Positions 3,897 through 6,204 of a stretch of DNA of 43,889 bases are shown here, piece after piece; the first letter of the stretch is position 1, and each line of letters starts with the position of its first letter. Under the pieces are notes generated by a model, which had not been told where the DNA came from, did not search any database, and was given only the letters and a program-made list of their open reading frames with translations. Source of the DNA: a virus; the IMG/VR virus record IMGVR_UViG_3300006155_000030. One strand, written 5' to 3'. The position numbers were made by a program, and so were the translations under genes.

Positions 3897-4034
3897 CTAT
3901 TTCTTTTTGGAATCTCCGAAAATAGCATAGAAAATCAGAGTAAGCATTATGCCAATACTCCAAATCAAAACAACTGTTCCGCTGAACACCCAAAAACTGC
4001 TAAATATGTACTTTAAAATTTCCAACATTCCCAT
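3897..4034 (-). CDS. small membrane protein (45 aa), putative
   Basis: Hand-translated MGMLEILKYIFSSFWVFSGTVVLIWSIGIMLTLIFYAIFGDSKKK with a weak SD AAGGGA upstream. Below the track cutoff. Confidence 0.35.
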   Translation of the reverse strand: MGMLEILKYIFSSFWVFSGTVVLIWSIGIMLTLIFYAIFGDSKKK

Positions 4035-4124
4035 ATCATCCCTTTTGCGGTTTCCGACAGGGAAAACTCCCCTATCAGAGTTATTTTGTTTTCAACAGGG
4101 CGGTGACCGCTTGCTCCTGTCTAG

Positions 4125-4640
4125 CTATATATTCTTAAAACTTTTTCTTATAGCAGCCAACCTTATTGCTTCTGGTTTTACACCAAATCTTTTTGCTAAC
4201 TGTGTTGTATTATAATTCTCTCTGTGATTATCATATAAATCTCTTATAATCAAAACGTCCTCGTTTTTCAATTTTGACTTATGGCTTTCTTCTCCAGATT
4301 TAACCATGCCATGTTCTACCGCATGTATTATATTTTCTTGATTTGTACACCATTCCAAATTATCAACACAATTATTTAGGATATTTCCGTCTATATGATT
4401 CACCATTGGCTTTCCAAGCTCATTTTCAATAAACGTTTCGGCAACAGCTTTATGGACTTTGATTGTTTTCTTGTTTTTCTTTGAGCCAAAAGTACCAGAA
4501 AAAGCATAATATCCTTGTGTATTAAAAGAAAGTTTTCTTATTCTTCCGTTAGTTGCATTTTTAACTCTTCCTTTGTTGGAAATTAAGTAATAATCTCCCA
4601 AATCCTTACCTTGATAGATAAGTCTTCTCCATTCCTCCAT
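4125..4640 (-). CDS. HNH homing endonuclease (NUMOD4 + HNH_3 type)
   Basis: 171 aa. WRRL..YYLISNKGRVKN (NUMOD4-like) is followed by VNHIDGNILNNCVDNLEWCTNQENIIHA (HNH_3 motif). SD GGAGGGATTATG. A/T-rich relative to its neighbours. Confidence 0.8.
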   Translation of the reverse strand: MEEWRRLIYQGKDLGDYYLISNKGRVKNATNGRIRKLSFNTQGYYAFSGTFGSKKNKKTIKVHKAVAETFIENELGKPMVNHIDGNILNNCVDNLEWCTNQENIIHAVEHGMVKSGEESHKSKLKNEDVLIIRDLYDNHRENYNTTQLAKRFGVKPEAIRLAAIRKSFKNI

Positions 4641-4675
4641 AATCCCTCCAATATACCATAAATACTGCGCAACAT

Positions 4676-4790
4676 TTGGAAGAATGGATTTGAACCATTA
4701 CCTAATAGCGTGCTCCCAACAGTCATAGAACGGAATCGAACCGCGATAACGTATCGTGCTCCCAATTACACCACTTCCAAACCTAATCTT
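4676..4790 (-). ncRNA. composite tRNA-like element T4
   Basis: TTGGAAG-TG-GTGT/AATTGGGA/GCAC-G-[54 nt]-AATGG/TTCAAAT/CCATT-CTTCCAA. The 54-nt insert contains a second TTGGGAGCACG (D-arm duplicate), a CGATA/CGT/TATCG hairpin and a second GGTTCGATTCC box. Confidence 0.5.
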
Positions 4791-4820
4791 TAATTTATAC
4801 ATGCGTCAACTACATGTTAA

Positions 4821-4934
4821 ATGGATAGGCAGGAATTGAACCTGCATATTAGGCACACTATAGCCACGGAGATTTGCACTCCTTTTCGTTTTGGTTAGCC
4901 TCCTACTCCGGCTCTACCATTAAGCTACTATCCA
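4821..4934 (-). ncRNA. expanded tRNA-like element T3
   Basis: TGGATAG-TA-GCTT/AATGGTA/GAGC-C-[64 nt]-GCAGG/TTCAATT/CCTGC-CTATCCA. The insert has three GGAG tracts competing for one CTCCG, an inner GGAG/TGCAAAT/CTCC hairpin and a GGC...GCC arm. Confidence 0.5.
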
Positions 4935-5158
4935 CTTTTGCACCGAATAGTCCCACACAGTTCACGGTGCTATGGTCTGCTTCCTGTAAGTCGCCGCCGT
5001 CCATCACGGATTTTACCCGTGTCGCTCTTTCAGACCTCTTACACTGTCCATTTTCTGTCTGCAAGGACTGTGCAGTTCCGAAGATGCGTTCCCTAACTTT
5101 TATATCCTGCAAAACAGGACAATCCAGAAAGTTCATTCATCTTGTACGGATTGATTGA
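4935..5158 (-). ncRNA. structured non-coding leader upstream of T3/T4
   Basis: ~220 nt between the late promoter and T3 with no SD-led ORF. Visible helices: 5105-5109/5115-5119, 5059-5063/5071-5075, 5005-5009/5017-5021, 4940-4945/4965-4970, and long-range 4974-4979/5031-5036. Confidence 0.45.
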
Positions 5159-5192
5159 ATTATACCATAATTCCAGAAATTATTTGTACCAA
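5159..5192 (-). promoter_or_regulatory. phage late-type promoter (TGGTACAA box + -10)
   Basis: Minus strand TTGGTACAAATAATTTCTGGAATTATGGTATAAT, with the same 22-nt geometry and a consensus TATAAT. It lies directly after terminator 5199-5224 and drives the non-coding region. Confidence 0.65.
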
Positions 5193-5198
5193 CTTAAA

Positions 5199-5224
5199 GC
5201 AAAAGAGCGGCATCACTGCCGCCC
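5199..5224 (-). terminator. Rho-independent terminator
   Basis: Minus strand GCGGCA-GTGA-TGCCGC followed by TCTTTTGCTTT, immediately after the stop of 5234..5779. Confidence 0.7.
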
Positions 5225-5233
5225 CTTGCAATA

Positions 5234-5779
5234 TTACATCTCTGCAATTTTCCTTGCCCAGTTCTGGATAATCTCCCTTTCCTCCCGACAGTCCGCATCC
5301 TTGAACATCTGTTTCATCATGCCATGCACGCCGGACATGAAATCTTCCAAAGCGTCAAGCATTCTGTTCTTCGTTCCATCATCCCGGCTGTTGGAGTATT
5401 CCATCTTCCGGCTACGGTACTCGTCCATGTCTGTATCATCACCAGACAGACGGGAATAGTTCGGGCGGTGAACATATCTGCCAGTGGTTGCGCTTCTGCC
5501 CCGGCGGTAAGAATTGCCGTTGTCGTAGTCGTTGGAGTAATTCCCCTCCCGGCTGTAATCGCCGTTACGGGAATACCCGCCACGCTCCCGGCTGTAATCC
5601 TCCATGTCCCGGCTGTAACCGTCCCTGGAATAACCGCCGCCGTCCTGCATCATTTCAATTTTATCCACGCCTTTCATAATCTCCACCAGCTTATAGGCGT
5701 TATCCAGGTTGGAAGAAGTCAAGCCTTTTTCCTCAATCGCTTTCAACTCTTTTTCTGCGTTTTCTCTCAATTTATGCAT
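5234..5779 (-). CDS. low-complexity protein with (G)YSR repeats
   Basis: 181 aa with SD GGGAGGGCTGATTATG. Helical ends flank a core of GGGYSRDGYSRDMEDYSRERGGYSRNGDYSREGNYS. The DNA shows repeated CCCGGCTGTAA(T/C)C units at about 5545-5625. Confidence 0.6.
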   Translation of the reverse strand: MHKLRENAEKELKAIEEKGLTSSNLDNAYKLVEIMKGVDKIEMMQDGGGYSRDGYSRDMEDYSRERGGYSRNGDYSREGNYSNDYDNGNSYRRGRSATTGRYVHRPNYSRLSGDDTDMDEYRSRKMEYSNSRDDGTKNRMLDALEDFMSGVHGMMKQMFKDADCREEREIIQNWARKIAEM

Positions 5780-5781
5780 AA

Positions 5782-6204
5782 TCAGCCCTCCCTTACTGCA
5801 ATCAGGTTAGCGTTCTGCACCTGAATCGCCTGTGTTGACGTGTTTTCGACTGCAACCGGCACACAGCACCCTCTCGAAACGTCTATGTACGCTTGTGCAG
5901 ACACGTTGAAGAAGTTCTCAACAGCTGCCGGGGTTACAATCATACGGGTAGACTGCAAAGGCTCTCCGTCAACCGCAATCGCTACGGAGATAGCTTCCAC
6001 CGTGCCTCCTGTCGGAATCTGGATATTTCCCGAAAAGCTGACAAGAAATCTTGCCTTGCAGTTATTGGTAAGTCCTCTCAATTTCACAATGCCGCTCCCC
6101 TCCCTGTGCTGAATACAGTTTGAACCGCACACGGGGGTTTCGGTTAATACAACATTCTGCCCTGCGTCTACGGTTTGCAAGGCAATTCCTGTAAATTCTG
6201 CCAT
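5782..6204 (-). CDS. beta-rich protein, possibly BclA-C-terminal/C1q-TNF-like fold
   Basis: Start moved to ATG 6204 (MAEFTGIALQTV...) with SD GGAGGAAAATAACATG. The 141-aa sequence pattern (..VLTETPVCGSN..GIVKLRG..ARFLVSFSGNIQIP..ISVAIAVDGEPL..) recalls BclA C-terminal domains. Not verified. Confidence 0.5.
   Translation of the reverse strand: MAEFTGIALQTVDAGQNVVLTETPVCGSNCIQHREGSGIVKLRGLTNNCKARFLVSFSGNIQIPTGGTVEAISVAIAVDGEPLQSTRMIVTPAAVENFFNVSAQAYIDVSRGCCVPVAVENTSTQAIQVQNANLIAVREG

Follow-up and report, generated by a model that had tools for sequence, protein, structure and literature searches.

The locus studied here raises the question of what kind of RNA a phage may make from a stretch that lies behind a late-type promoter and ahead of two tRNA-like elements. 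We analyzed this stretch within a viral DNA sequence of 43,889 nt (hereafter, the window), in which all features of the locus lie on the minus strand, where the initial annotation had placed them. Read along that strand, a gene without an assigned function (5779..5234, phrog_28802) is followed by an intrinsic terminator (5196..5229), a phage-type promoter (5159..5192), a 224-nt leader (5158-4935), two tRNA-like elements (tRNA-like 1, 4821..4934, and tRNA-like 2, 4780-4675) and, at the end of the RNA stretch, an HNH homing-endonuclease gene (4640..4125). The prophage is present in isolate genomes of a mouse gut collection.

The promoter consists of a TTGGTACAA box (5192-5184) and an extended -10 element, TGgTATAAT (5167-5159), and no sigma-70 -35 element is found within 5159..5192. 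Comparison with related loci showed that the arrangement box-N19-TAnnAT heads the homologous locus in nearly every relative, with its spacing fixed, and about nine further sites on the minus strand of the window show the same arrangement. We take the TTGGTACAA-type promoter, on these sequence grounds, to be a genuine phage-specific promoter class, and we infer that transcription starts near position 5152. The recurrence of the motif in the window and in the relatives suggests that the box is read by a transcription factor which is encoded by the phage or specific to it. Immediately upstream, the terminator of the preceding gene was recognized by its folding and by its conservation in relatives. 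Its hairpin (5229-5199), together with the U-tract, folds at -20.5 kcal/mol (z = -5.0), a value that none of 200 shuffled sequences equaled; a simple terminator scan overlooked it. The conserved motif and the terminator bear out the initial annotation in placing the promoter (box plus TATAAT) right behind a terminator. The same annotation, however, had the promoter and the terminator framing the RNA. Being upstream of the promoter, the terminator therefore ends the preceding gene and does not frame the RNA, and no terminator-like site was found between the leader, both tRNA-likes and the HNH gene. Thus, the 3' end of a leader RNA would need to be generated by processing.

Two reading frames are open across the leader in the window, a 77-aa ORF on the minus strand (4903..5136) and an ORF on the plus strand (4874..5158), and this openness is what speaks for one of them being a small protein gene. 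Neither ORF, however, is preceded by a Shine-Dalgarno sequence. When relatives were compared for a conserved protein-coding signal, both frames proved to be broken: in L002, L071 and L073, which are the closest relatives, an in-frame stop interrupts the minus-strand ORF, and a 5-nt indel in L014 shifts its frame and, likewise, that of the plus-strand ORF. Moreover, both ORFs cover three modules that are found apart in relatives and then enter a tRNA-like gene. These comparative data refute a small protein, to which we assign a negligible probability. They agree with the earlier reading of both ORFs as non-coding, and no conserved ORF was found in the entire ~520 nt up to the HNH gene, which had been described as free of SD-led ORFs. 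Judging from these comparisons, the leader is non-coding.

Relatives of the locus were gathered through the upstream protein and by pattern scans of viral contigs, metagenomes and species-representative genomes. All are prophages whose hosts belong to the Lachnospiraceae and related Clostridia, such as Eubacterium sp. 14-2, Acetatifactor and Hungatella, and many come from a mouse-gut genome collection. Using BLAST and direct reading, we found three pieces of the leader separately in these relatives. What had been treated as a single ~220-nt unit is instead, by this comparison, a mosaic of three independently assorting pieces, namely a hairpin leader (L1), a conserved 33-nt block and a structured module (module A).

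L1, the promoter-proximal piece (83 nt, 5076..5158), is lineage-specific. It folds into a long-range stem, CCG..AAGAUG / CAUCUU..CGG, around the hairpin UCCUG/CAGGA (5119-5115 / 5109-5105), with a minimum free energy of -23.1 kcal/mol (z = -2.9). L1 is common only to L013- and L020-type loci; others have quite different leaders or almost none, and L002 has another leader ahead of the block. At two loci (L020:2600-2760 and L021:10720-10870), we observed a tiny Shine-Dalgarno-led ORF, encoding 17 aa in L020 and 10 aa in L021; between this ORF and the block, close to the latter, lies a conserved hairpin module, CGCCAAACGUGGCG ... GCGGCUUUAAGAACACGUUAAACUAUGUAAG. This pair of elements could be a leader-peptide type of control. 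Upstream of the locus, two isolate-genome prophages carry an int-alpA RNA (RF02996) that scores above the gathering threshold (L013:1396-1460 and L015:1980-2048).

The 33-nt block (5043..5075) is made up of a hairpin, CUGCA/UGCAG (5075-5071 / 5063-5059), and an A-rich tail ending in GGAC. It occurs once in the window and is kept in every related locus that we found in viral, metagenome and genome collections. Its ten sequence variants are all compatible with the hairpin, and in most loci the block is directly followed by some kind of tRNA-like gene. For a possible pseudoknot within the block, GUCC/GGAC, the relatives show two wobble variants and one mismatch variant. No relative lacks the block, which invariably separates the promoter from the first RNA gene. 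This constancy and the position of the leader directly behind a late-type promoter both fit a leader that acts in cis, be it by anti-termination, as a 5' stabilizer against 5' exonucleases or as an attenuator. However, close relatives with the same downstream genes do without module A and L1, the distance between promoter and block varies from ~25 to ~110 nt across relatives, and no alternative terminator/antiterminator pairing was found. We therefore consider it unlikely that the leader acts in cis. The dispensability of L1 and module A marks these two pieces as cargo and not as obligate control elements; a role in cis is plausible for the block alone, which on present sequence data is the only candidate cis element.

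The block region is also represented in a CRISPR array on a metagenome contig (L053:3500-3560; OFHO01000041.1), which has a type I-C-like repeat ending in ATTGAAAT. A 35-nt spacer of this array is identical to the block region of the window, and the TTC in front of the protospacer (5079-5045, minus strand) is the PAM usual for type I-C. This phage group thus evidently meets immunity in some gut bacterium, directed at its most conserved RNA element.

Module A (4935..5045) directly adjoins tRNA-like 1 in the window. In L015, L049, L057 and L059, the block is joined straight to the same tRNA-like 1 and module A is missing; module A is therefore an insert of ~105 nt. Similarly, L041 carries module A and its close relatives L037, L039 and L040 do not. 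This presence and absence between close relatives marks module A as an exchangeable cassette, as opposed to an obligate control element. In the window, the repeat AGUGGA flanks module A at both ends. A transposon-like insertion was considered and rejected, as these flanks were seen only in the tRNA-like 1 context and not when L065 was compared with L064, which makes cassette recombination more likely than transposition.

We built a covariance model (R2) from seven module A variants. R2 detected a full-length copy of the module in L041 (8100-8290), a 77-kb phage that is unrelated to the window phage, and a scan for the invariant loop followed by R2 returned twelve further copies. The resulting family comprises 18 distinct sequences on several unrelated phage backbones, in an alignment with few deep lineages. 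The window copy scores 130 bits with R2 and the further members score 84-107 bits. Members of the family have a tRNA or tRNA-like directly 3' or, in the loci checked with ARAGORN, a tRNA or tRNA-like on the same strand within ~500 nt downstream. In L082, L085, L086, L089, L091, L092 and L041, module A is followed on its own strand, after ~200-450 nt, by a canonical tRNA-Asn(GUU). Among 151 sampled genomes of a host's family, a single one carried the module and this genome was the search centre, so the family is sporadic. Queries of GenBank phages by blastn, with the locus and with full-length module A, gave no match, and full-text literature searches for the conserved strings returned only unrelated primer matches. 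Judged by its distribution, module A appears to be a structured RNA domain that is autonomous and passes from one gut phage to another, unrelated one, normally residing in or beside tRNA or tRNA-like arrays.

The family consensus starts with AGUGGAAGA, the 6-bp stem S2, AAAGAGC and a variable S3 hairpin. Its middle part contains GCGGNGGC, with or without a GNRA mini-hairpin, followed by GAC..AAGGAAG, the 3' strand of S2 and AUA, and its 3' part contains a variable S4 stem with an invariant 19-nt loop, a UGACR linker, S5 (4 bp with a GAAAGA loop) and S6, a palindromic hairpin. Both the invariant loops and the GNRA hairpin of some members suggest that the RNA adopts a defined tertiary fold. The window copy shares the first elements, with AGUGUAAGA, an S2 of GGUCUG/CAGACC (5036-5031/4979-4974) and AAAGAGC. 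It continues with an S3 hairpin, CACGG/CCGUG (5021-5017/5009-5005), and with CGGCGGCGAC..ACAGGAAG, which corresponds to the GCGGNGGC...AGGAAG that precedes the 3' strand of S2 in the family. Its S4 stem, GCACCG/CGGUGC (4970-4965/4945-4940), encloses the loop UGAACUGUGUGGGACUAUU (family loop, UGARCUGUGUGGGWCUAUU). The UGACR linker, S5 and S6 are missing from the window copy; in the window, L002 and L014 types, S4 is followed by AAAAG and then straight by tRNA-like 1. The isolate genomes of L071 and L079, from a mouse-gut collection of Clostridia and Lachnospiraceae, carry a copy of the L002 type, which differs by three substitutions from that of the window. Since S5 and S6 are kept by 13 of the 18 family members, the window copy is a 3'-truncated one.

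Having lost S5 and S6, the window copy could be a non-functional remnant, that is, a fragment left by recombination and transcribed without a function of its own. The short repeats shared at the cassette boundaries (AGUGGA at both ends) suggest microhomology-driven exchange, and two S3 types of the truncated form are also present in full-length copies (L073 and L065), so these types need not reflect selection on the truncated form. The truncated form is, however, kept in at least four distinct sequences (window, L002, L014 and L071/L079), which come from different contigs and host genomes and have all three stems fully paired. A relic is thus not a likely account of the window copy in our view.

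Six helices had been proposed for the leader by the initial annotation, and five of them find support in compensatory changes among relatives. The L1 helix (5105-5109/5115-5119) shows one compensatory change in L013, as read from the sequences. In the block helix (5059-5063/5071-5075), we found wobble-compatible changes and one compensatory change of the closing pair, from C-G to A-U, in L084. S3 (5005-5009/5017-5021) corresponds to different yet still paired hairpins in most family members and thus stays paired despite the sequence differences among them. S2 (4974-4979/5031-5036) and S4 (4940-4945/4965-4970) are 100% paired, with 8 of their 12 pairs changed on both sides. None of 500 shuffles reproduced covariation as good as that of S2 and S4, the pairing collapsed when the partners were slid, and RNAalifold predicted both stems independently. 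S5 and S6 covary in full-length members. The sixth proposal, a CACAGT/ACTGTG pairing, found no support, as members without the block have no such partner. Kissing of the block loop with the S4 loop (AGUCCU/GGGACU or CACAGU/ACUGUG) was likewise rejected: L065 and L073 change the S4 loop and leave the block unchanged, and family members that lack the block offer no partner. Folding energies were no better than those of shuffled sequences for the 224-nt leader (z = -1.3) or for module A (z = -0.5), and the case for structure therefore rests on covariation. The minimum-energy fold of module A chooses a window-specific pairing over S2. Across the relatives that carry them, the five supported helices are maintained.

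We compared the locus with Rfam 15, whose 4227 models include hammerhead, twister, pistol, hatchet, HDV-like, ROOL, GOLLD, HEARO, tmRNA and Y-RNA-like families. At the gathering threshold, tRNA-like 2 was the single match in the whole window. At E <= 5, both tRNA-likes were matched in the stretch 4000-5900, and inside the leader only a chance-level match to SpR10 appeared (16.7 bits versus a threshold of 50). For module A, neither an Rfam 15 family nor a known ribozyme class was matched, and the scan gave no ribozyme, ROOL or GOLLD match for the ribozyme or large ornate RNA that had been suggested earlier. The leader is not itself tRNA- or tmRNA-like, the Rfam tRNA matches beginning only at 4934. 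The tRNA model matches tRNA-like 1 at 42.5 bits, and it fits tRNA-likes 1 and 2 only by skipping 61 and 44 nt, respectively, in the anticodon region; in tRNA-like 1, these 61 nt stand in place of 18. The acceptor, D and T arms of tRNA-like 1 are retained. ARAGORN reported no tRNA or tmRNA in the 43,889-nt window, and a tmRNA-like tag frame inside tRNA-like 1 was considered and dropped, as a G3-U70 pair is absent from its acceptor stem.

Catalytic RNAs typically display invariant loops together with covarying stems, and module A adds to these a position beside tRNA-like genes. Both features would fit a self-cleaving ribozyme, formed by module A alone or with the block, that trims the precursor beside the tRNA-like. 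There is a precedent in the theta (minimal HDV-like) ribozymes that lie beside phage tRNAs in gut Caudoviricetes (Kienbeck et al. 2024, PMC10879173). Like module A, theta ribozymes are small conserved structured RNAs adjoining tRNA genes in gut phages, and their context shares with that of module A hosts whose tRNA genes are often without an encoded CCA (PMC10879173). However, theta ribozymes are short double-pseudoknot RNAs located 3' of a tRNA, with their cleavage site at the tRNA end (PMC10879173), whereas module A is ~110-160 nt long, lies 5' of a tRNA-like, and has neither a conserved pseudoknot nor a match to an HDV model. The 5' end of a theta ribozyme abuts the 3' end of a tRNA, and module A comes instead after the block and before the tRNA-like. 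Its helices are nested or serial (S2 encloses S3, then S4 follows) and do not form the double pseudoknot of HDV and theta ribozymes (P1, P2, P3, P1.1 and P4). The only crossing pair in the window, UGUAAG/CUUACA, which alone could form a pseudoknot, is broken in L002 and L014; the fold of module A is therefore not HDV-like. An HDV-like threading of module A, and of a second module (module B, described below), was rejected because the helix order does not fit. Reading the sequence for the hammerhead core CUGANGA ... GAAA, we found CUGAAAGA in module A, without the G required at core position 8. With no Rfam 15 ribozyme family matched even at E <= 5, we regard a self-cleaving ribozyme as improbable. 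ROOL and GOLLD resemble module A in being phage- or prophage-borne structured RNAs of unknown function that often lie beside tRNA genes, but at 500-800 nt they are far larger, and module A matches neither.

We propose, with moderate confidence, that a late, polycistronic and non-coding transcript begins with the leader and forms an "RNA island" assembled from exchangeable folded-RNA cassettes. Transcription would begin at the TTGGTACAA-type promoter (start ~5152), run through the L1 hairpin, the 33-nt block and module A, and continue without a terminator into the two non-decoding tRNA-likes and the HNH gene. RNase P recognizes the acceptor, T-arm and elbow of tRNA. Host RNase P would cut at the 5' end of tRNA-like 1 (~4934/4935), which is the most likely route to a discrete RNA, and the leader RNA freed by this cut would be ~218 nt long, its folded core being module A. 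Once released, the leader RNA may act in trans, for example as a protein-binding RNA or as a translation- or tRNA-related RNA.

Several systems are known in which tRNAs or tRNA-like structures punctuate a transcript and RNase P or RNase Z defines the ends of the neighboring RNAs, among them mitochondrial punctuation, the MALAT1 mascRNA and the tRNA-miRNA units of gammaherpesviruses. These systems are eukaryotic or organellar, whereas for the 3' end of the phage leader we infer that the same mechanism would operate. The tRNA cluster of phage T4 encodes the stable RNAs species 1 and 2 (rnaC and rnaD), which are non-coding, are co-transcribed with tRNAs and have their ends set by tRNA-processing enzymes; their function is unknown. 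In these general features they can be likened to module A. Unlike them, module A moves as a cassette, is carried by many unrelated gut phages and has no tRNA-like end of its own. A bolder possibility, which we hold to be decidedly unlikely, is that module A represents a new functional RNA class whose targets or partners are tRNA precursors or the translation machinery. Module A could then be a new ribozyme, an RNA that binds a ligand or a protein, or a decoy that counters host RNA-targeting defence, and the non-decoding tRNA-likes would serve to cut module A out.

Other RNA modules were observed in the related loci. Module B is a strongly conserved RNA of ~95 nt that is present at L007:4214-4313, L017:1846-1945 and L036:3763-3862 (minus strand) and at 13 other loci, and it does not occur in the window. 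It has an invariant core, two helices with strong covariation and an invariant hairpin loop, GUGGUUA, and it has no match in Rfam. Module B usually begins 0-3 nt past the 3' end of a tRNA or tRNA-like, often with another tRNA next, a placement that resembles that of a 3'-processing ribozyme, though its fold is not HDV-like. A homology between modules A and B was rejected: the module B model, R1, gave 9.9 bits (E = 0.73) on 5043-4933, and global alignment scored no better than shuffles (z = -0.7 to 0.6), so that the two are similar in helix order only. Module C, a conserved non-coding stretch of ~220 nt, has the block or a tRNA-like on one side and the next tRNA-like on the other (L007:3950-4170 and L031:3660-3880) and also has no Rfam match. 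In two loci, the same RNA island contains a complete tmRNA gene (L004:4006-4309 and L005:4424-4730; Rfam 92-95 bits), for which ARAGORN gives the tags AKRKLAMVA and ADRKLAMVA. Finally, in L014, L049, L057 and L059, tRNA-like 1 is followed by a conserved hairpin leader, CUGAUAGGGGAG..., and then by the next gene. This hairpin leader is absent from the window, where tRNA-like 2 and the HNH gene are found instead (4125-4820), a replacement that would fit an insertion associated with the homing endonuclease.

The usual reading of phage tRNA clusters is that they aid codon usage. Here, a late-type promoter heads an array that has no decoding tRNA and consists only of folded RNA cassettes and tRNA look-alikes. 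The module A family is conserved, lies outside Rfam and was not found in the literature searched; with the R2 model, 18 sequences and five covarying helices, it provides a concrete object to test. If the RNAs of this island are excised and stable, gut phages would carry a small-RNA tool-kit.
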